In this document: one piece after another, positions 1-6,387 of the stretch | Layout: each line of letters opens with the position of its first letter | Numbering within the stretch: position 1 is the stretch's first letter | Made by a program: the position numbers and the translations under genes | Notes under the pieces: model-generated | What the model was told of the DNA's origin: nothing | The model's input: only the letters and a program-made list of their open reading frames with translations | Databases searched by the model: none | From: a virus | Lineage: Duplodnaviria; Heunggongvirae; Uroviricota; Caudoviricetes | Length of the DNA: 7,420 nucleotides | Virus record (IMG/VR): IMGVR_UViG_2693429700_000021 | Span: 1 to 7,420 of that record | Direction: 5' to 3' (one strand)

Positions 1-168
1 CTGTGAGTCATATTCATCCTGACTTTCCAGAACCATACGAATCGCCCGCTGACGGACTTCGGGGGAAAAACGAGTATTTTTAGTCATCCTGTTTACCTCT
101 TTCTCAGGGAGTTTAGTCTCCAGGATTTCCGGGGCGGTTCAACCCGCTGCTTTATCGATGCCGATAAT

Positions 169-732
169 ATGCGAGCCGTCAGTGTGCTTAACCTGGGTAC
201 TATTGATGAACCAGGTCACGCAGATAACACCGCCACCCTCAAACTGAAAAAGACAGCACCGTTTTCTGCTCTGTTGTCTGTTAATGGCGAGCGTAACTCC
301 CAGAAGTCACTGGCAGAATGGATTGAAGACTGGGCCGACTACCTTGTGGGCTTTGATGCTAATGGTGACACCATTCAGGCAACCAAAGCGGCTGCGGCAG
401 TCCGTAAAATCACAATTGAAGCAAACCAGACCGCTGATTTTGAAGACAATGACTTCAGCGGCAAACGCTCTCTGATGGAGTCTGTCGAAGCGAAAACCAA
501 AGACATTATGCCAGTGGCATTTGAATTTAAATGCGTTCCGTTTGAAGGCCTGAAAGAACGTCCGTTTAAATTACGCCTCAGCATTATCACTGGCGATCGT
601 CCTGTACTGGTTCTGCGCATTATTCAGCTGGAAGCGGTGCAGGAAGAAATGGCTAACGAATTTCGTGATCTGCTTGTTGAGAAATTCAAAGACAGCAAAG
701 TAGAAACCTTTATTGGTACTTTCACCGCCTGA
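169..732 (+). CDS. Prophage protein of unknown function, probably DUF2303/YfdQ-like; N-terminus uncertain
   Basis: 187-codon ORF from ATG 169 to the stop at 730-732. The frame is open back to position 7 but has no ATG/GTG/TTG there, and no clear Shine-Dalgarno precedes 169. It lies directly upstream of a YfdR-like gene, as yfdQ does in E. coli CPS-53/KplE1. The family name rests on remembered gene order, not on an alignment. Confidence 0.6.
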
Positions 733-745
733 TTTCATTACTGCA

Positions 746-770
746 AATGCCCCTGCGGGGGCATTTATGG
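746..770 (+). terminator. Possible intrinsic terminator or attenuator between the yfdQ-like and yfdR-like genes
   Basis: Hairpin AAATGCCCC (746-754), loop TGCG, GGGGCATTT (759-767), then AT-rich TTTAT; it lies 14 nt after the stop at 732. The U-tract is short, so it may be only a partial terminator. Confidence 0.4.
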
Positions 771-860
771 AAACGTAATTAACTCAATAATCACCGGATG
801 GTGAGAGCTTCCTTTTAGCAGAATTCAGCGCGGTGCAGCGCATATAAAGTGGAGAACGAA

Positions 861-1397
861 ATGTCATTTATTAAAACTTTTTCCGGGAAGCATTTTTATT
901 ATGACAAGATAAATAAAGACGACATCGTGATTAACGATATCGCAGTTTCCCTTTCAAATATCTGTCGCTTTGCAGGACATCTTTCACACTTCTACAGTGT
1001 CGCCCAGCATGCGGTGCTTTGCAGCCAGCTGGTGCCGCAGGAATTTGCTTTTGAAGCGTTAATGCATGATGCAACAGAAGCATATTGCCAGGACATCCCC
1101 GCGCCACTAAAACGCCTTCTTCCTGACTATAAACGGATGGAAGAAAAAATAGACGCCGTAATCCGTGAGAAATACGGGTTACCCCCGGTTATGAGCACGC
1201 CTGTGAAATATGCCGATCTCATCATGCTGGCAACCGAACGCCGCGATCTCGGGCTTGATGATGGCTCTTTCTGGCCTGTACTGGAAGGCATCCCGGCGAC
1301 AGAGATGTTCAAAGTTATTCCACTGTCGCCAGGCCATGCCTATGGGATGTTTATGGAACGTTTTAACGAGTTATCGGAGTTACGCAAATGCGCATGA
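861..1397 (+). CDS. yfdR: HD-domain phosphohydrolase, YfdR-like 5'-deoxynucleotidase
   Basis: GGAG at 851-854 lies 6 nt before ATG 861, so I prefer this start to the GTG at 849 used by the ORF track; this gives 178 aa. HD-domain signature is readable: RFAGH, SVAQHAV, ALMHDATEAY with downstream Asp residues. The N-terminus MSFIKTFSGKHFYYD matches my memory of E. coli YfdR. Confidence 0.85.
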   Translation: MSFIKTFSGKHFYYDKINKDDIVINDIAVSLSNICRFAGHLSHFYSVAQHAVLCSQLVPQEFAFEALMHDATEAYCQDIPAPLKRLLPDYKRMEEKIDAVIREKYGLPPVMSTPVKYADLIMLATERRDLGLDDGSFWPVLEGIPATEMFKVIPLSPGHAYGMFMERFNELSELRKCA

Positions 1398-1903
1398 ATG
1401 TTTTCGAAATGGAAGGGTTTCTTCACGGGAGATGTGTACCGCGAGATCTGAAAGTGAACGAAACAAACGCTGAGTACCTGGTGCGTAAATTTGCTGAAGC
1501 TGAGTCCAAGTGCGCGGCGCTGGCGGCGGAGAATGCGGGGCTGAAGTCTGGCGCTATGGACGAAATCAAGGTTATCAACCGTGGAGGGCAGGCATATTGC
1601 GTAAAAGATGGAGTGCAAGTCAATCCCATGTATGCAAGAGGGTGGAATGACTATCGCGCAAAGTCTCTGCAATCAGACACCCCAGCCACCGATGCTTTCC
1701 TGGCTGAAGTACGGGCGCAGGGCGTGGATGCTGCTATAGAAGCTGCAAAAAATCTGGTGGCCCAAGAATATGAGTATAAGGATTTCAAAGCGGCACAGAG
1801 TGATTGCTGTATGCACCCTGGTTCAGACCGGGTAGGGAAGGTTGAAATGACTGAGTGGTTAGTTGACTTTGCTGCCCAGCTTCGCAAAGGAGGCAACCAG
1901 TGA
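1388..1903 (+). CDS. Hypothetical prophage early protein, possibly Ead/Ea22-like mosaic family
   Basis: 171-aa ORF whose ATG 1388 overlaps the yfdR stop (ATGCGCATGA). It ends ...KGGNQ* with its stop overlapping the next GTG start. The internal segment TPATDAFLAEVRAQGVDAA resembles segments I recall from Ea22-like prophage proteins. Confidence 0.65.
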   Translation: MRMNVFEMEGFLHGRCVPRDLKVNETNAEYLVRKFAEAESKCAALAAENAGLKSGAMDEIKVINRGGQAYCVKDGVQVNPMYARGWNDYRAKSLQSDTPATDAFLAEVRAQGVDAAIEAAKNLVAQEYEYKDFKAAQSDCCMHPGSDRVGKVEMTEWLVDFAAQLRKGGNQ

Positions 1904-2385
1904 CTGGACATGCAGCAATCCTCGACATGTGTTGTGGCAGTCGCATGTTCTGGTTCGATAAGAATGACGACCGGGCGATATTTAGCGATATCAGAAAGGA
2001 AGAGCACACATTATGTGATGGACGACGGCTGATAATTAGCCCTGACCTGATAGCAGATTTTCGTGCATTACCATTTGCAGACGCATCGTTTCCGGTTGTT
2101 GTATTCGACCCTCCGCATCTTGAGCGTGTTGGTGATAACGCCTGGATGGGAAAGAAATATGGACGACTGAATAAAGATACCTGGCGTGATGATTTGCGGC
2201 AGGGGTTTAAAGAAGCCTTTCGGGTGTTGTGGCCACACGGCGTTCTGATTTTTAAATGGAATGAAACGCAAATACCTGTTCGCCAGATATTGGCACTGAC
2301 CGACAGAAAGCCTGTTATCGGTCAACGAACAGGAAAGGGTGACAAGACCCACTGGATTATTTTTATGAAGGAGGGCAACCAGTGA
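1900..2385 (+). CDS. Small SAM-dependent methyltransferase, probably a DNA N6-adenine/N4-cytosine type
   Basis: GTG start at 1900 preceded by GGAGG (1889-1893) with a 6-nt spacer. SAM-binding motif I-like ILDMCCGSRMFW near the N-terminus and catalytic motif IV-like VVFDPPH (the (D/N/S)PP(Y/F/W/H) class). At 161 aa there is no room for a large target-recognition domain. Confidence 0.75.
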   Translation: MTGHAAILDMCCGSRMFWFDKNDDRAIFSDIRKEEHTLCDGRRLIISPDLIADFRALPFADASFPVVVFDPPHLERVGDNAWMGKKYGRLNKDTWRDDLRQGFKEAFRVLWPHGVLIFKWNETQIPVRQILALTDRKPVIGQRTGKGDKTHWIIFMKEGNQ

Positions 2386-3035
2386 GCAAGATTGACTATC
2401 AGGCACTGCGTGAGGCGGCAGAGCGTGCAATTCCGGCAATGGAACGCCTGTTAATGTTGCCAGTTGATGATGATCTGATAAGCGAACAGGAACTTAAAGA
2501 TTACGGTGTGGATATTGATGCGCTCAACGCCTTCAAATTTCTGACCGGACCAGAAACCGTGCTGGCGCTGCTGGATGAACGGGAAAGAAACCAGCAACAC
2601 ATCAAATCACGCTACCAGGAGAACGAGGATATTGCGCTAACGGTTGGGAGGCTGCTAATCGAAAACGGCCAGCTTGTTGCCGATACGCTACGCCACTTAT
2701 CTGATAACGAAATCGACTCTGATTATTTTGCTATCACCTCAACGAATGAGAACGGTACTGAAATTGATCATGAGATGGCTATTACCGATTACGCACTGCA
2801 AGCTGCCGGAACTGTAGACGAATTGGTTGCAGCGCTGGAATCCGCAGAGAAGCGTATTGCTGAACTGGAAGCGCGGGAAGTTCAATTACCGACTCGCTAC
2901 GACCTTCGATATGGACACCCGATAAATGCAGATGAGCTACATGTCATGATACCTAAAGAAAATGGCAGTTGGCTTTACCTGATTGACCTAGAACACGCAT
3001 TACGCGTCGCTGACATTCGCATCAAAGGAGAGTGA
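2382..3035 (+). CDS. Ead/Ea22-like prophage early protein
   Basis: GTG start at 2382 overlapping the upstream TGA, preceded by GGAGGG. N-terminal MSKIDYQALREAAERA, central VLALLDERE and C-terminal AEKRIAELEAREVQLP match conserved segments I recall from the Ead/Ea22-like family. Confidence 0.7.
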   Translation: MSKIDYQALREAAERAIPAMERLLMLPVDDDLISEQELKDYGVDIDALNAFKFLTGPETVLALLDERERNQQHIKSRYQENEDIALTVGRLLIENGQLVADTLRHLSDNEIDSDYFAITSTNENGTEIDHEMAITDYALQAAGTVDELVAALESAEKRIAELEAREVQLPTRYDLRYGHPINADELHVMIPKENGSWLYLIDLEHALRVADIRIKGE

Positions 3036-3036
3036 T

Positions 3037-3552
3037 ATGGCGCTAACACACCGCGAACTCTGTCAGATTGCGTACAAGTTCCTTAAGCGCAACGGGTTCA
3101 AGGTTTGTTTTCATGACCGCTTTATAGCTGTAACCAGTACCGGAGAACAGCCAGATGCTATGGGATTCAGAAATTCAGCATCATGCCTGATAGAGGCGAA
3201 GTGTTCTCGTGCTGACTTGTTGGCAGATAGAAAAAAGCGTTTTCGTAAAAATCCGTCTCTTGGAATGGGCGACTGGCGATTCTTTATTAGTGAGCCGGGA
3301 ATTATTTCAATTGAGGATTTACCACCTGGCTGGGGATTACTTCACGTTGTTAACGGAAGAGTACGGAAAGTACATGGGTGGCCCAAGGGTAATTGCTGTT
3401 GGGGTAATCCTGACGATAAGCCATTTACTGGAAATAAGCAGGTTGAATGCGATTACATGTTATCTGCATTAAGGCGCATGGAGTTGAGAGGGCACCTTAA
3501 TGAAATATATGACGGTGTAATTGTTAATAAGAAAGAAGGAAACGCGGCATGA
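3037..3552 (+). CDS. PD-(D/E)xK nuclease-like protein of unknown function
   Basis: ATG 3037 with AGGAG 6 nt upstream. N-terminal region has an upstream Glu (RELCQ), then GEQPDAMGF and, 13 residues later, CLIEAKCS, which fits the PD...(D/E)xK restriction-endonuclease-like core. The C-terminal half is Cys/Trp-rich (GNCCWGNPDD). Confidence 0.6.
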   Translation: MALTHRELCQIAYKFLKRNGFKVCFHDRFIAVTSTGEQPDAMGFRNSASCLIEAKCSRADLLADRKKRFRKNPSLGMGDWRFFISEPGIISIEDLPPGWGLLHVVNGRVRKVHGWPKGNCCWGNPDDKPFTGNKQVECDYMLSALRRMELRGHLNEIYDGVIVNKKEGNAA

Positions 3553-3950
3553 TCACTATTACCAAAGAGCGACTACTGACAATCAAGCAGTGGCGCGAAA
3601 CATACGGACCTGATAGCAACGTTGTACTGCCAGCAGAAGAAGCGGAAGAACTGGCGCGGATTGCGCTGGCATCGCTGGAAGCAGAACCGGTGGCATGGCT
3701 GCATTCAGACAATGGCTTAGGTATTCCGGCAATAACACGGAGTAAAAACGTTGCTGACAGTTGGTTATCAAAGGGTTGGTATGTTCAGCCGCTATATATA
3801 GCTCAGCCAGTACACGTGCCGGAGGAAATGAATCTGGCACGCGCACAGAAAGAGGTGGGTTTTAATCGATATATCATGGCTGGGTATGTTGATGGCTGGA
3901 ACGCCTGCCGCGCTGCCATGCTTCAGAGCCAAGGTGGAGGCAACCAATGA
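3549..3950 (+). CDS. Hypothetical prophage early protein
   Basis: 133-aa ORF; ATGA start/stop overlap with the upstream gene. It ends GGGNQ* at the conserved junction motif. No catalytic motif recognised. Confidence 0.65.
   Translation: MITITKERLLTIKQWRETYGPDSNVVLPAEEAEELARIALASLEAEPVAWLHSDNGLGIPAITRSKNVADSWLSKGWYVQPLYIAQPVHVPEEMNLARAQKEVGFNRYIMAGYVDGWNACRAAMLQSQGGGNQ
3864..3878 (+). repeat. 15-nt exact repeat ATCGATATATCATGG, copy 1, inside the 3' part of CDS 3549..3950
   Basis: Identical 15-mer recurs at 6373-6387, with flanking similarity (TTTT before; GG..TATGTT after). Confidence 0.7.
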
Positions 3951-4258
3951 GCAATTATCTGTACTGGTCTGGCTTAGTGGCTAACATCGCGCTCATGTTG
4001 TTCGTGGCTCTTTGCATCTGGGTTTGGTTTATCTGGCCTTTTGTAGAAGCCATGAGCATAACTCGGTGCTTTATTTGCGCATCAAAGACTTCTGGATGCA
4101 AACCAACTGTAAGAGCAATTATCAGAACTTTAAAATACTGGTATCTGGATTTGCTTTTCGGCAGGGGCTGGACGCGAATTAGTAACCGCCAGTTTGAATG
4201 GGAAGGCGTCGGTAACTGGCGAATTCACAGCAGCAAAGAAACGCAGGAGGTGAAGTAA
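3947..4258 (+). CDS. Small membrane protein, hypothetical
   Basis: 103-aa ORF, ATG 3947 overlapping the upstream stop, GGAGG 6 nt upstream. Strongly hydrophobic N-terminal segment LVANIALMLFVALCIWVWFIWPFV predicts one transmembrane helix (possibly two); a Cys-containing stretch CFICASKTSGC follows. Confidence 0.6.
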   Translation: MSNYLYWSGLVANIALMLFVALCIWVWFIWPFVEAMSITRCFICASKTSGCKPTVRAIIRTLKYWYLDLLFGRGWTRISNRQFEWEGVGNWRIHSSKETQEVK

Positions 4259-4830
4259 TGAATAACTTAATGATCGACCTTGAGACGATGGGGAAAAATA
4301 AGGATGCACCGATCGTTTCCATTGGCGCGGTGTTCTTCACTCCAGAAACCGGAGACATCGGACAAGAATTCTATACGGTTGTTAGCCTGGAAAGTGCTAT
4401 GGGGCAAGGAGCTACACCTGACGGCGATACCATCCTGTGGTGGTTGAAACAGAGCTCTGAAGCACGAGCTGCAATCTGTATTGATGATACTTTGTCGATC
4501 AGCGATGCACTCTCTGAACTGAGCCATTTCATTAATCAGCATGCAGACAATACAAAATATTTAAAAGTCTGGGGTAACGGGGCCACCTTCGACAACGTAA
4601 TTTTACGTGGAGCTTACGAGCGAGCAGGACAAATCTGCCCGTGGGCGTACTGGAATGACCACGATGTACGCACGATCGTTACGCTTGGGCGTTCCATCGG
4701 ATTCGACCCCAAAATGGACATGCCTTTCGATGGCGAACGGCACAACGCCCTGGCTGATGCCCGTCATCAGGCAAAATATGTTTCCGCTATCTGGCAGAAA
4801 CTAATTCCTGCCACCAGCACAGAATTATGA
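4258..4830 (+). CDS. DnaQ-like DEDDh 3'-5' exonuclease (prophage exonuclease)
   Basis: ATG 4258 overlapping the upstream TAA (TAATG), GGAGG at 4246-4250. Exo I motif MIDLETMG (D-x-E), Exo II WGNGATFDNV and Exo III HNALADARH (H-x4-D) are all present in the expected order. Confidence 0.85.
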   Translation: MNNLMIDLETMGKNKDAPIVSIGAVFFTPETGDIGQEFYTVVSLESAMGQGATPDGDTILWWLKQSSEARAAICIDDTLSISDALSELSHFINQHADNTKYLKVWGNGATFDNVILRGAYERAGQICPWAYWNDHDVRTIVTLGRSIGFDPKMDMPFDGERHNALADARHQAKYVSAIWQKLIPATSTEL

Positions 4831-4866
4831 TTTTCCCGGGTGCAGCCGGTTTTGATGGAGAAAATT

Positions 4867-5148
4867 ATGAACACCTTGTTTTTACTGATGGCTGAATTCA
4901 ATACCCCTAACATTGAACTCTCAGCAGTTAGCCAAAAGTACTTTGGCATGAGTCCAGCCACGGCAGAAGCAAAAGCAAACGCTTGTAAGTTGCCCGTTCC
5001 AACATATCGCATCGGCACATCACAAAAAGCAAAACGTTGCATCAATATTCAGGATCTTGCGGAATACATAGACAAAAGACGAGAAGAAGGACGTATCGAG
5101 TGGGAACAGGTCAGAACAAGCAAACAGAAGGGCAAAGAACATCACTAA
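4867..5148 (+). CDS. Excisionase/recombination directionality factor-like protein, PrtN/P22-Xis-like family
   Basis: The track ORF starts at GTG 4840, but GGAG (4857-4860) sits 6 nt before ATG 4867, giving MNTLFLLMAEF..., the N-terminus typical of PrtN-family excisionases. Stop at 5146-5148, followed directly by a strong terminator. Confidence 0.7.
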   Translation: MNTLFLLMAEFNTPNIELSAVSQKYFGMSPATAEAKANACKLPVPTYRIGTSQKAKRCINIQDLAEYIDKRREEGRIEWEQVRTSKQKGKEHH

Positions 5149-5150
5149 AG

Positions 5151-5177
5151 AAAAAACCCGCCTAAAGGCGGGTTTTC
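5151..5177. terminator. Bidirectional rho-independent terminator
   Basis: AAAAAA (5151-5156), stem CCCGCC (5157-5162), loop TAAA, stem GGCGGG (5167-5172), then TTTTC. This gives a U-run on both strands, between the convergent + strand excisionase-like gene and the minus-strand 57-codon ORF. Confidence 0.75.
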
Positions 5178-5195
5178 AAAAAGCACCAGCTATGA

Positions 5196-5369
5196 TCATG
5201 CTGCTTTGCGACGACGAAGCTTACCCTGCTGCTCTTTACCAGAGACAGTAGCGTGAGTGAACGCATTAGGAGCAGCCTTCATCAGAACTTCAACAGCAGC
5301 ACCCATACCTGCGAATGCTTTCATTGTGTCGAACTTAACCTGTGGCTTGGTTGCTTTTTGATCTTTCAT
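5196..5369 (-). CDS. Small hypothetical protein (57 aa), absent from the ORF track
   Basis: My own translation of the minus strand gives MKDQKATKPQVKFDTMKAFAGMGAAVEVLMKAAPNAFTHATVSGKEQQGKLRRRKAA. ATG at 5369-5367, GGGAG 6 nt upstream on the minus strand, TGA stop at 5198-5196, and the bidirectional terminator about 20 nt downstream. Confidence 0.55.
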   Translation of the reverse strand: MKDQKATKPQVKFDTMKAFAGMGAAVEVLMKAAPNAFTHATVSGKEQQGKLRRRKAA

Positions 5370-5439
5370 AGAAAACTCCCGAGACAGTAAAGGCGTCTCT
5401 AACCCTCTCTTTAAAGCTAGCTTGTTTCGCTAACTTATG

Positions 5440-5460
5440 CCAATCGATCATGTCGATTGG
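5440..5460. promoter_or_regulatory. Perfect inverted repeat CCAATCGA-N5-TCGATTGG, candidate operator
   Basis: 8-bp arms are exact reverse complements around a 5-bp spacer. It lies about 70-90 bp upstream of the small minus-strand ORF and overlaps a -35-like TTGGCA on the minus strand. No adjacent U-tract, so it is not a terminator. Confidence 0.3.
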
Positions 5461-5565
5461 TGACATCGTTTCTTAGTAGTTTAAGCACAAAACGACTGCC
5501 ATAGATGTACCTTTAAGGTAATCTGGACGGGTATCCTACAATTTGTAGCCCCTTCTCGTCTATAC

Positions 5566-6102
5566 CTACTGAGCAAATTTAAGAAAGATATCCTGCAGCT
5601 CATCAATGACTGCAGACATCACATAACCGCACTGTTCCATGCGGAAACCAAAAGACTCGTAATACTGCACCAGTTCTGGTACTGGCTCTACAATGTGGAC
5701 AACTTTACATTCAACAGCTTTACAAAATATAAAAGCACTCATAAGAGTGAGTAAAACCATGCGCCCTTTCAATGGGTGAGATTCATCTTCTCTAGAAAAC
5801 CTTTCGATCATATGGATACGAAAGATGTTTTCTTCAACCCCATAAACACAAATTGCTGCTCCTGATGGTATTCCCTGAACCCGACCTTGCTGAACAAGTT
5901 TTATGCAGAACTCATACTTTTCTCTGGAGTTGCCATAGGTGCTTAACGCATAGTCCCATTCAAGCTCACCATAGCCACCACACAGAATCTTGTAATCATC
6001 ATCACTGAGCGGACCAACAGCAAGAGGTAAGCCGACATGATCAATAATCAACTGGATATTGTTACGTACAGATTGACCTATCTCGTCTAGGGTAAGCATC
6101 AT
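5566..6102 (-). CDS. GNAT-fold-like acyltransferase candidate, atypical
   Basis: 178-aa ORF starting with tandem ATG codons (6102-6097) and ending at TAG 5568-5566. C-terminal YYESFGF resembles the conserved GNAT beta-strand (FYxxLGF), and HPLKGRMVLLTLMSAF is a weak candidate for the acetyl-CoA-binding segment. The canonical R/Q-x-x-G-x-G/A motif is not cleanly present, so the fold assignment is tentative. Confidence 0.6.
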   Translation of the reverse strand: MMLTLDEIGQSVRNNIQLIIDHVGLPLAVGPLSDDDYKILCGGYGELEWDYALSTYGNSREKYEFCIKLVQQGRVQGIPSGAAICVYGVEENIFRIHMIERFSREDESHPLKGRMVLLTLMSAFIFCKAVECKVVHIVEPVPELVQYYESFGFRMEQCGYVMSAVIDELQDIFLKFAQ

Positions 6103-6131
6103 AGACTCTCAAGCGGAACACTAAAAATCTC

Positions 6132-6137
6132 ATTATA
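6132..6137 (-). promoter_or_regulatory. Candidate -10 hexamer (TATAAT) for the GNAT-like gene
   Basis: Exact TATAAT on the minus strand, 29 nt upstream of the ATG at 6102. No good -35 match; the palindrome ATGCCcGGCAT (6148-6158) occupies the -35 region. Confidence 0.3.
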
Positions 6138-6372
6138 TCTCATTCTGATGCCCGGCATGGATTACACCTTGAAATGAAAACACCGGGTTCCCAATAGGCT
6201 CCCACAAAGTGTATAACTACTTGTTTTTCAAAAACGATACATCCTATCGAGCATTGGTGCAACGCTAAACCGACCACTCCAGTGAACGTCAGTTTTTTCA
6301 GGCATTGCGCTGGTTTGGTTGATTTTTTGCATTTCAGAATTACCGTGCATTTTCAAATGTAGAGATTATTTT

Positions 6373-6387
6373 ATCGATATATCATGG
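6373..6387 (+). repeat. 15-nt exact repeat ATCGATATATCATGG, copy 2, in the intergenic region
   Basis: Same 15-mer as 3864-3878; about 30 nt downstream is CAGGAGGCTCAATAGCG, which resembles the GGAGGCAACCAATGA gene-junction motif. Confidence 0.7.

Follow-up and report, generated by a model that had tools for sequence, protein, structure and literature searches.

ORF178, a gene at the attR end of a lambdoid prophage, is obligately paired with a small gene, orf57, and the two form an autonomous cassette that sits in a cargo slot of the prophage. The window, i.e. the whole stretch of DNA that was analysed (7,420 nucleotides, Caudoviricetes, IMG/VR record IMGVR_UViG_2693429700_000021), contains the cassette together with its neighbours (Table 1). 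The ORF178 family, which is undescribed, is herewith given a fold, predicted with high confidence to be that of the GNAT proteins, and a definition: its members are obligately paired with a small protein. The pair is placed in a slot where, in other strains, a toxin-antitoxin (TA) module of a validated type resides. Our best explanation, to which we assign a probability of roughly 40%, is that ORF178 and orf57 constitute a TA-like, abortive-infection or prophage-stabilising moron whose effector has the GNAT fold and acts by an inferred mechanism.

Table 1. Features of the cassette and its neighbourhood (window positions).
Feature	Position	Strand	Remarks
PrtN-type excisionase gene (xis)	4840..5148	+	last gene of the prophage early-left operon; convergent with the cassette
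Bidirectional intrinsic terminator	5152..5177	both	common to orf57 (minus) and xis (plus); cassette end
orf57, obligate partner gene	5196..5369	-	= mEp460 gp24, phrog_2741
Structured RNA spacer between ORF178 and orf57	5370..5565	-	structure indicated by covariation of pairing
orf57 Shine-Dalgarno GGGAG	5376-5380	-	
Spacer hairpin HP-D (predicted)	5381-5399	-	abuts the orf57 Shine-Dalgarno
Exchangeable cargo slot	5383..6176	.	swapped in other E. coli dusA prophages
Spacer hairpin HP-C (predicted)	5414-5436	-	
Spacer hairpin HP-B (predicted)	5440-5460	-	
Spacer hairpin HP-A (predicted)	5507-5521	-	
Two invariant hexamers	5533..5562	-	just past the ORF178 stop, 18 nt apart: TAGACG 5557-5562, TAsGAT 5533-5538
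ORF178, GNAT-fold protein gene (fold predicted)	5566..6102	-	= mEp460 gp23, WP_000956557.1, phrog_4350
ORF178 Shine-Dalgarno GAGAG	6106..6110	-	6 nt from the second ATG
Perfect -10 hexamer TATAAT	6132..6137	-	precedes the ORF178 ATG by ~30 nt
Displaced 5′ end of host dusA	6246..6350	-	attR junction near 6246; RefSeq pseudogene

The ORF178-orf57 cassette and its cargo slot

The first-pass annotation had placed a gene at 5566-6102, and an open reading frame on the minus strand fills exactly that span. It translates into 178 amino acids, with HPLKGRM at residues 109-115 and YYESFGF at residues 147-153. Translation probably begins at the second ATG (6099), since homologues start with MLTL, RefSeq annotates 177 amino acids, the length that this start would give, and the GAGAG Shine-Dalgarno sequence lies 6 nt from it. 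ORF178 is confirmed as a real gene, far beyond a chance ORF, by its 100% identity to mEp460 gp23, by its full-length presence in 357 of 5,426 complete E. coli genomes (O157:H7, O55:H7 and O111 among them), by its homologues (51 clusters at 90% identity; 95 clusters at 50% identity, E ≤ 1e-3) and by purifying selection, with a dN/dS of 0.05 to 0.30 in three comparisons with measurable dS. Literature searches covering the accession, the phage and GNAT defence systems turned up no report on this protein. Both cassette genes carry the label “hypothetical protein” wherever they are annotated.

A small partner gene accompanies the ORF178 family in 103 of 103 loci, on the same strand and 97-252 nt downstream, and was also found in 7 of 8 assessable distant relatives. 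The pairing spans 16-100% identity and occurs in unrelated surroundings: the cassette adjoins attP in mEp460, lies within a tail module in Photorhabdus, in a prophage in Shewanella and downstream of Q in phage Eeyore, and further cassettes were found in islands. Gene order is inverted in one distant relative (L119), where the small gene is located upstream. No GNAT gene lacking the small partner was present among the 103 loci, and more than 200 E. coli genomes retain orf57 without the GNAT gene. The organisation matches that of type II TA modules in general, conserved two-gene units that move jointly from one genomic context to another, whose order may flip, and in which the antitoxin but not the toxin may be encountered alone. 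An obligatory activator, adaptor or substrate would explain this asymmetry just as well.

ORF178 had initially been described as not organised like GNAT/RHH pairs. This holds in so far as the window contains no small ORF upstream of the gene and no RHH partner. The implication that the gene stands alone, and is hence not TA-like, is unsupported: the gene is strictly paired, and in other strains the same prophage slot bears the TA module PanAT.

The prophage that carries the cassette is lambdoid, mEp460-like and integrated in dusA, and has the cassette at its attR end. RefSeq calls the adjacent host fragment “tRNA-dihydrouridine synthase, missing C-terminus”; it is co-oriented with ORF178, so that the host dusA promoter might read into the cassette. 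In other E. coli dusA prophages the slot contains PanA (PF13274, E 1.8e-18) and a 128-aa gene, together the PanAT module, and the flanks of the slot, including orf57, are 98-99% identical between the PanAT and the GNAT version. In the more than 200 genomes orf57 is left as an orphan beside PanAT. A role of orf57 as general third gene of PanAT was considered and rejected, as the PanA and 128-aa gene pair stands alone, without orf57, in Yersinia and Klebsiella phages.

The term moron names an organisation, not a function. This organisation was found here: a -10 element in register, a terminator, a lower GC content (41-43% in the cassette and 46-51% in the early region) and at least three different phage positions.

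Fold, cofactor loop and active site of ORF178

A GNAT fold had been suggested for ORF178 on the basis of the YYESFGF string and the protein size, with structure modelling proposed as a check. Structure prediction returned this fold with high confidence, and structure comparison recognised the GNAT core (β1-α1-α2-β2-β3-β4-α3-β5-α4-β6) in the model. The nearest solved structures include TacT3, TacT2, AtaT, KacT and 7byy; a fold search of BFVD retrieved generic GNATs only. The profile search against Pfam, likewise proposed, turned out differently: it gave no acetyltransferase match, and no strong match to an unrelated family either (ORF178 no match at E ≤ 1, 28 close relatives none at E ≤ 10). 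NCBIfam and PDB sequence searches gave no match for ORF178. Altogether, in Pfam, NCBIfam, PADLOC, PHROGs and PDB sequences, ORF178 and orf57 match only two PHROGs of unknown function. Neither matches PADLOC-DB v2, which holds known and candidate defence proteins, at E ≤ 1, which counts against our best explanation. A bridge from the family to canonical GNATs through the weak tail of the HMM search was tried and discarded, as the 20 distant relatives scanned carry no Pfam domain.

The pyrophosphate-binding motif had been called degenerate (HPLKGRM), and indeed the string Q/R-x-x-G-x-G/A is absent before helix α3 (DSSP helix 115-130). The β4-α3 loop, residues 102-114, reads SREDESHPLKGR, is followed by M115 and is 3-5 residues longer than that of RimI. 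H109, P110, L111, G113 and M115 are invariant in the 28 close relatives, and H-P-L-x-G-R/K-M is the family's own motif, mostly kept family-wide. G113 is the sole loop residue that can be matched to a motif glycine; it is not universal, being Arg or Lys in some relatives, and Met115 sits where the small residue of the motif aligns. With hhalign, PELVQYYESFGF of ORF178 aligns with AAAIALYESLGF of RimI, and YYESFGF comes to lie opposite RimI ALYESLGF. This profile-profile comparison is confident for α4 only; it is collinear through motif A at a probability of 5.8%, and the register of G113 against QxxGxG is therefore tentative. A homology search with RimI returned relatives of at least 80% identity only.

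The α4 motif A-x-x-x-Y-x-x-x-G-F (motif B) is present in ORF178. Close relatives all share Y148, G152 and F153, and nearly all share E100 in β4; Y148 and F153 are also retained by at least 90% of the wide family. Tyr148 would be the catalytic general acid. Conservation of Tyr148 and Glu100, together with the invariance of the replacement loop in close relatives, makes a functional active site more likely than a decayed one.

It is doubtful that ORF178 is instead a non-catalytic GNAT-like scaffold, which would have kept the fold and lost cofactor binding. Such a protein would act by binding, for instance by serving as an acidic decoy for Orf57 or another basic nucleic-acid-binding protein and thereby sequestering it. 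The missing motif, Met115 at the small-residue position and the variable G113 would agree with such a scaffold, as would the strong negative charge of the protein and the result that acetyltransferase HMMs match 0 of 28 close and 0 of 20 distant relatives scanned. However, a loop that is invariant in close relatives and mostly kept family-wide, combined with conserved Tyr148 and Glu100, is the pattern typical of a used active site. GNATs hold the pyrophosphate via main-chain amides; loss of the side-chain motif alone thus need not abolish CoA binding. An inactive ORF178 would illustrate how the GNAT fold can be reused for binding.

ORF178 has a net charge of -10 and a pI of 4.8, and 26 of 27 close relatives have charges of -9 to -18. 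We expect tRNA-acetylating toxins to require a basic tRNA-binding surface. The strongly acidic character (net charge -10 to -19) argues against tRNA binding, without excluding it, and acetylation of aminoacyl-tRNA by ORF178 is unlikely. A different donor or acceptor could also be considered. In the manner of LuxI, FeeM, Fem and L/F-transferases, ORF178 might draw on acyl-ACP or aminoacyl-tRNA in place of acetyl-CoA, or it might detoxify a small molecule such as an antibiotic or polyamine, with orf57 being functionally unrelated or merely regulatory. This is improbable: it leaves the strict pairing across 16-100% identity and the charge complementarity of the partners (see below) unexplained, and the gene has no biosynthetic or resistance context.

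Orf57, the spacer RNA and expression signals

Orf57 is a basic protein of 57 amino acids (pI 10.5) with the C-terminus ...QGKLRRRKAA. Its predicted structure consists of one central helix (residues 15-32) flanked by disordered tails. Across the loci the small partner has 52-68 amino acids and is mostly disordered and usually basic. Net charges of the two partners are anticorrelated (rho -0.72, p 0.013, n=11), which, like the predicted disorder of the partner alone, suggests that Orf57 may physically bind ORF178. orf57 has a dN/dS of 0.05-0.2. The small protein is better conserved than ORF178 and the synonymous divergence of its gene is far lower, which shows mosaic exchange and not tight pairwise co-evolution. 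Eight divergent partner versions showed no Pfam domain at E ≤ 10, neither RHH/DUF1778 nor Panacea. The N-terminal dipeptide is not conserved and no lysine is conserved, in the tail or family-wide; the tail of the phage Eeyore partner contains no lysine at all. The small gene is unannotated in phage Eeyore, and gene callers can miss such genes. In the assembly collection, 1,389 indexed blocks contain the Salmonella version of the small partner.

These properties bear on two other roles for Orf57. ORF178 could be a lysogenic-conversion enzyme, a non-toxic acyltransferase acting on a basic host or incoming-phage protein (ribosomal, nucleoid-associated or injected), with Orf57 as obligatory adaptor, activator or first substrate. 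We regard this as possible but rather unlikely. Lacking a conserved dipeptide or lysine, the partner would be a poor universal substrate; moreover, it is found intact in many genomes that lack the enzyme, and the slot is otherwise occupied by a TA module. Alternatively, the roles might be reversed as in a type VII-like system, the small basic protein being the toxin that is neutralised through acetylation by the GNAT enzyme. A two-gene module of one enzyme and one small basic protein would suit such an enzymatic antitoxin, and HepT/MntA and TglT/TakA are precedents for antitoxins that act by chemical modification of the toxin. Nevertheless, it is highly improbable here: orf57 is intact, at 98-99% nucleotide identity, in the more than 200 E. 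coli genomes without the GNAT gene, which is hard to square with orf57 as toxin, and no lysine of the small protein is conserved family-wide.

The spacer RNA is structured, as judged from comparison of alleles. In its hairpins 91.4% of cells are paired, compared with 22-44% in slid controls, and 22 cells have double changes, compared with 8.9 in shuffles, none of 500 shuffles being as high. About 46 cells are G.U, which makes the structure specific to the coding strand. Rfam gave no match for the spacer. A type III (RNA antitoxin) element was rejected, because the hairpins are not tandem repeats and are positioned downstream of the putative toxin. A protein-coding spacer was rejected as well: a 43-aa ORF (5335-5466) shares the frame of orf57 only in certain alleles, and no other part of the module is less conserved than this stretch. 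The sRNA-17 of E. coli RS218 is located in an mEp460-like prophage (PMC7719688); it was discarded as an overlapping element, since its sequence (from the primers of that paper) is absent from the window and from the six loci examined.

The -10 element upstream of ORF178 probably has promoter activity: TAnAAT is in the same register in all alleles, even where the upstream DNA is otherwise unrelated. The hexamers past the ORF178 stop are a candidate internal promoter for orf57; the pair, with 8 of 12 matches, is below the threshold of the promoter scanner. AGAC of the hexamer region can alternatively form a long-range pairing with GUCU of HP-D. The terminator at the cassette end has a perfect 11-bp stem followed by a T-run. 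On the minus strand the terminator scan found none in the spacer; the only other match is a 5-pair stem (5749-5736) within the ORF178 coding sequence.

Proposed function and comparison with known systems

For the TA-like moron we propose the following mechanism. ORF178 would be a highly divergent protein of the GNAT (acyl-CoA N-acyltransferase) fold with an acidic surface and a remodelled cofactor loop, which the small, basic and largely disordered Orf57 would bind and control. In the lysogen, Orf57 would hold the acyltransferase inactive, possibly as a pseudosubstrate whose Arg/Lys-rich tail occupies the acidic groove for the substrate. Once Orf57 is lost, ORF178 would acylate a basic cellular or phage target, and growth arrest would result. 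The loss could occur by ClpXP-type proteolysis via the ...RRRKAA C-terminus or by shut-off of its structured mRNA leader, which would be under separate control. For ClpXP, the C-terminal tags ..YALAA, ..GVAA and RRKKAI are known (PMC8138137) and give a lead towards such a degron. The proposal presumes that ORF178 is enzymatically active and toxic, that Orf57 carries a degron and that the pair has the biological role described.

The obligate pairing, the unrelated contexts, the inverted order, the asymmetry and the slot in common with a TA module argue for this reading, as do the conserved α4 and β4 residues, the anticorrelated charges and the moron anatomy. The partner without an RHH/DUF1778 or Panacea domain, the distance between genes that do not overlap, and a small protein that is more conserved than the putative toxin count against it. 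The enzymatic part is further weakened by the missing canonical CoA motif and the variable G113, and CoA binding is putative. A more specific version, in which the pair represents an undescribed class, is unlikely: a disordered, degron-tailed pseudosubstrate would restrain a loop-remodelled GNAT acyltransferase, and a four-hairpin leader would set synthesis of the pseudosubstrate. Infection or prophage loss would free the enzyme to acylate a basic protein, not tRNA, with the outcome that phage growth is aborted or cured cells are killed. If this is true, TA and defence systems would gain a new effector chemistry, one that occurs in prophages of E. coli O157:H7, O111 and Salmonella. An active acyltransferase with a protein target would be a new mechanism for prophage-encoded addiction or defence systems, and it would offer an experimental handle on a widespread gene of unassigned role. 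The cassette is common.

GNAT/DUF1778 TA systems (TacAT, AtaRT, KacAT, ItaRT, GmvAT and the DUF4065-paired clade) resemble the pair in having a GNAT-fold protein of ~175 aa, a conserved two-gene module on mobile elements, a conserved α4 tyrosine and a small, partly disordered partner. Their defining feature is an adjacent DUF1778 (RHH) antitoxin gene, or DUF4065 in clade C (PMC9177977), whereas the partner of ORF178 is neither DUF1778/RHH nor Panacea. It is usually located downstream, beyond a structured spacer of 97-252 nt and without overlap. In addition, ORF178 is acidic, has no canonical CoA loop and is unrelated in sequence, the Pfam, NCBIfam and PDB sequence searches being empty. The peptide N-terminal acetyltransferases NatD/Naa40, Naa20, Ard1/Naa10 and RimI are 10-13% identical to ORF178. 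For RimI the α4 motif alone aligns by profile comparison, with low probability; ORF178 lacks the QxxGxG/A loop of these enzymes, and Orf57 lacks a conserved N-terminus usable as substrate.

In sister E. coli dusA prophages, PanAT fills precisely this cargo slot between orf57 and attR, and like ORF178-orf57 it is a phage-borne two-gene accessory cassette. The proteins are unrelated, and ORF178 is no Panacea protein; the PanAT genes abut, whereas ORF178 and orf57 are set apart by the long structured RNA. Lambdoid morons such as lambda lom and bor are autonomous promoter-gene-terminator inserts; the cassette resembles them in having a -10 element and an intrinsic terminator of its own, a lower GC content and insertion at module boundaries in different phages. 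In contrast to them, it carries a two-protein system and, inside it, an RNA that may be regulatory.

ORF178 and its predicted fold

The best-supported reading of ORF178, a gene with a predicted GNAT fold, and of the small gene orf57 is that they form a toxin-antitoxin (TA)-like cassette for addiction, abortive infection or exclusion. This reading draws on the predicted fold, the conservation at catalytic positions, an obligate pairing that does not depend on gene order, the finding that only partners occur as orphans, the PanAT alternative and the autonomous signals of the cassette. GNAT folds and two-gene TA-like cassettes are already known. New are a GNAT-fold family that is unseen by all sequence models and has a remodelled cofactor loop, an obligate partner that is small and disordered, a structured RNA between the two cistrons and the prophage cargo slot in common with PanAT. 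Nothing was found on ORF178 in the literature. The cassette is spread widely through pathogenic E. coli and Salmonella, and the function we infer for it is easily testable.

Features of the cassette and its surroundings
Feature	Position	Strand	Remark
Phage early-left genes, including 3'-5' exonuclease	left of cassette	+	
PrtN-type excisionase	4840-5148	+	
Bidirectional terminator	5152-5177	both	strong; follows orf57
orf57	5196-5369	-	small gene downstream of ORF178
Spacer ORF178-orf57	5370-5565	-	196 nt, four conserved hairpins
Invariant hexamers TAGACG and TAsGAT	5557-5562, 5533-5538	-	18 nt apart, just past ORF178 stop; rest of spacer variable
ORF178	5566..6102	-	178-codon ORF at exactly these coordinates
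GAGAG ribosome-binding site of ORF178	6106-6110	-	6 nt from ATG at 6099
Perfect TATAAT upstream of ORF178	6132-6137	-	
Displaced host dusA 5' end	6246-6350	-	RefSeq pseudogene
Host yjbM (DUF2713)	6713-7420		
Panacea gene and 128-aa gene	L115 2760-3748, L116 2760-3748		E. coli loci; equivalent to window 5383-6176

ORF178 is 100% identical to gp23 of the lambdoid phage mEp460, and 357 complete E. coli genomes carry it in full length. Its homologues form 51 clusters at 90% identity, spanning Enterobacterales and Shewanella, and an HMM search against 1.84 billion representatives gave 95 clusters (E <= 1e-3). The second ATG (6099) is more likely than the first to be the start codon, since homologues start with MLTL, RefSeq gives a protein of 177 aa and the GAGAG element is at a suitable place. 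Three comparisons with measurable dS gave dN/dS values of 0.05-0.3; non-synonymous change is strongly suppressed, and the ORF is not due to chance.

The first-pass annotation had proposed a GNAT fold, to be checked with acetyltransferase profiles and structure prediction. The profiles did not detect it: ORF178 has no match in Pfam (E <= 1), NCBIfam or PADLOC, the family profile found none among PDB sequences, and neither 28 relatives (E <= 10) nor 20 remote relatives matched a Pfam family. The sole sequence-library match is PHROG 4350, function unknown. Structure prediction bears the proposal out. The predicted model matched NatD/Naa40 (12.0), TacT3 (11.5), Naa20 (11.4), the bacterial toxin 7byy (11.3), RimI (11.0) and LasI (10.5), all at a sequence identity of 8-13%, and the viral structure library returned GNATs only. 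The fold assignment is therefore well supported, albeit through a predicted model, and TM-scores of 0.5-0.6 mark the protein as an outlier inside the superfamily. Peptide N-terminal acetyltransferases dominate the matches, which favours the main rival to the TA-like reading, namely that ORF178 is an acyltransferase without toxicity and requires Orf57 as an adaptor or activator.

In the model, strand beta4 comprises residues 93-101 and helix alpha3 begins at 115. The beta4-alpha3 loop, SREDESHPLKGR, is longer than that of RimI and does not contain the Q/R-x-x-G-x-G/A motif; the earlier description of a degenerate cofactor motif was right. In its HPLKGRM stretch (residues 109-115), close relatives never vary at H109, P110, L111, G113 and M115, and these residues are mostly retained family-wide; in some members Arg or Lys replaces G113, as in HPLRRKM of phage Eeyore. 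W49 is invariant across the whole family, and E100 of beta4 is nearly invariant in close relatives. Within the alpha4 segment YYESFGF (residues 147-153), close relatives show no change at Y148, G152 or F153; across the wide family, 90% or more of the members retain Y148 and F153. A profile comparison aligned PELVQYYESFGF of ORF178 with AAAIALYESLGF of RimI, the sole segment that aligned with any confidence. A tyrosine at the position of Y148 is commonly the general acid in the GNAT superfamily, and by analogy Y148 might have this role. Because both the replacement loop and the residues at catalytic positions are conserved, the active site looks remodelled rather than dead, with cofactor binding being putative; a non-catalytic scaffold or an enzyme using another acyl donor is less likely.

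The small partner Orf57

All 103 loci (a tally that takes in the window and many near-identical prophages) carry a small gene on the same strand, 97-252 nt downstream of the ORF178 relative. The first-pass annotation overlooked this partner, and its view that ORF178 is not organised like a TA pair needs correcting. The informative cases are the unrelated contexts: the pair is located beside attP in mEp460, within the tail/baseplate module in Photorhabdus prophages, in a Shewanella prophage, and between the Q antiterminator and the lysis genes in phage Eeyore (PP925821.1). The Eeyore homologue of orf57 (L006 4798-4959, 53 aa) has no GenBank annotation, and several of the tiny annotated ORFs around it (about 30-38 aa) look spurious. 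Partners were also found next to remote relatives.

Neighbours of remote ORF178 relatives
Relative	Identity to ORF178	Locus	Partner	Order	Adjoining gene
P0058	34%	L103	58 aa	downstream	
P0083	26%	L106/L107	58 aa	downstream	resolvase
P0085	16%	L108	61 aa	downstream	
P0100	22%	L121	68 aa	downstream	
P0074	26%	L122/L123	52 aa	downstream	P4-type integrase
P0069	32%	L119	55 aa	upstream (inverted order)	
P0121	17%	L104	different 90-aa neighbour		
P0064	31%	L105	contig too short to judge		

P0121 belongs to a remote basic subgroup of the family; at its locus (L104 392-1169) the 90-aa downstream ORF overlaps it and stands in place of the 52-68 aa partner.

The small partners follow one recognisable scheme: the N-terminus varies, a single amphipathic helix carries ...L.KAAP, and E-x-x-G-K/R comes next, before a tail of basic residues that frequently has AA at its end. 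Orf57 matches no Pfam family; orf57 is a genuine coding gene, its dN/dS being 0.05-0.2. Alone, the protein is predicted to form one helix, residues 15-32, flanked by disordered tails (pLDDT 61). The pI of the window Orf57 is 10.5 versus 4.8 for ORF178, and the net charges of the two proteins are anticorrelated in 11 divergent pairs (Spearman -0.72, p 0.013, no phylogenetic correction), which is modest evidence of contact.

In the TA-like reading, ORF178 would be the effector and Orf57 the neutralising partner. The two would bind one another, with the basic tail of Orf57 acting as a pseudosubstrate in an acidic groove, and free ORF178 would be toxic or otherwise active. ORF178 is acidic, and toxins that acetylate tRNA are expected to need a basic tRNA-binding surface. 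If ORF178 is a toxin, we would expect a basic protein as target and not aminoacyl-tRNA. The Orf57 C-terminus ...KLRRRKAA might serve as a ClpXP-type degron and is similar to the listed examples from ssrA (..YALAA), RseA (..GVAA) and MuA (RRKKAI) (PMC8138137). ORF178 is outside the known GNAT toxin family: its sequence shows no relation to these toxins, and the DUF1778 or DUF4065 partner that defines them (PMC9177977) is missing.

An exchangeable slot in dusA prophages

In other E. coli genomes (>200, estimated from search ranking), similarity to the window breaks off at 13 nt upstream of orf57's start codon and restarts near att. The replaced stretch encodes a Panacea-domain protein (PF13274, E 1.8e-18; 190 aa) followed by a 128-aa gene, the arrangement found in PanAT TA modules. 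Panacea is a validated, promiscuous antitoxin domain of PanAT modules (PMC8832971). The putative 128-aa toxin has no Pfam domain; relatives are found in Yersinia, Klebsiella, Vibrio and Pseudomonas phages. Since the pair occurs alone, without orf57, in the Yersinia and Klebsiella phages, the orf57 beside it in E. coli looks like a remnant of cassette replacement. At their att-proximal end, these dusA prophages have a slot for exchangeable cargo, used for TA-type modules. One Salmonella locus (L113 5381-5848) carries an extra gene between orf57 and xis that encodes an HTH_3 domain fused to a 2TM domain. The PADLOC models for RmrA, capH and control protein match it weakly, and the insert is a further sign of an accessory-gene hotspot.

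The small gene persists without the GNAT gene, whereas no GNAT gene was found to lack a small partner. In Photorhabdus temperata (L022 6001-6468) the GNAT-like gene is broken, its frame stopping after 72 codons, and the small gene downstream is intact, a further case of the partner outliving the enzyme. An adaptor or activator role of Orf57 accounts for this asymmetry equally well. The reverse assignment, with ORF178 as enzymatic antitoxin against a small toxin, is less likely in view of the many intact orphan orf57 genes.

orf57 is far more conserved than ORF178, in protein sequence and also at synonymous sites (dS 0.1-0.7 versus saturated; pS 0.1-0.46 versus about 0.7-0.96). Deeply diverged GNAT alleles have therefore been reassorted onto a near-constant orf57-xis flank, and the lower divergence of orf57 is consistent with mosaic exchange.

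Prophage location, cassette signals and spacer structure

The window corresponds to the right end of a prophage whose integration site is the dusA 5' end. The free phage mEp460 has the order int, attP, gp23, gp24, xis and carries, upstream of gp23, a diverged dusA 5' end of its own (L002 about 4700-4860). A dusA 5' fragment, from the host in the prophage and the phage's own copy in mEp460, therefore points into ORF178 in both, and ORF178 is located downstream of a dusA-type promoter region in phage and prophage. The displaced dusA end is a 42-codon ORF (6228-6356, minus strand) ending 126 nt before ORF178. About 55-64 nt beside the att junction (window 6177-6240) have a 90-98% match in cassette-free E. 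coli genomes, probably a conserved attP arm common to different dusA-integrating elements. A RefSeq record (L001) has DNA identical to window 5400-6400; upstream of it, at 449-6284 (versus window 1-4260), PGAP marks several early-region genes as partial or with frameshifts, and the DUF2303 gene is interrupted by an IS1203. This strain's prophage is probably defective.

TAnAAT is present in the same register in every allele, including alleles with unrelated remaining upstream DNA, and in several loci it comes after the terminator of the preceding gene. The GC content is 41-43% in the cassette versus 46-51% in the early region. The anatomy of the cassette is that of a moron. A terminator scan found no minus-strand terminator in the ORF178-orf57 spacer; besides the one after orf57, the sole terminator-like match on this strand is a 5-pair stem within ORF178 (5749-5736).

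Four hairpins are common to 16 distinct enterobacterial spacers. Altogether, 91.4% of cells are paired, versus 22-44% with slid partners, and 22 cells are double compensatory, versus 8.9 +/- 2.8 in shuffles (0/500 as high). On the opposite strand, some 46 G.U cells would turn into C.A mismatches. These cells and the pairing statistics therefore show that the structure is one of RNA, on the coding strand. The spacer has no Rfam match. Its last hairpin, HP-D, abuts the orf57 Shine-Dalgarno sequence, and the spacer may act as a leader for translational control or as an element for processing. The two hexamers may be a weak internal promoter (their score is under the scanner threshold), which would provide orf57 with a separate transcript whose leader is ~150 nt long. 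Another possibility is a long-range pairing of AGAC with GUCU at 5382-5385, in competition with HP-D.
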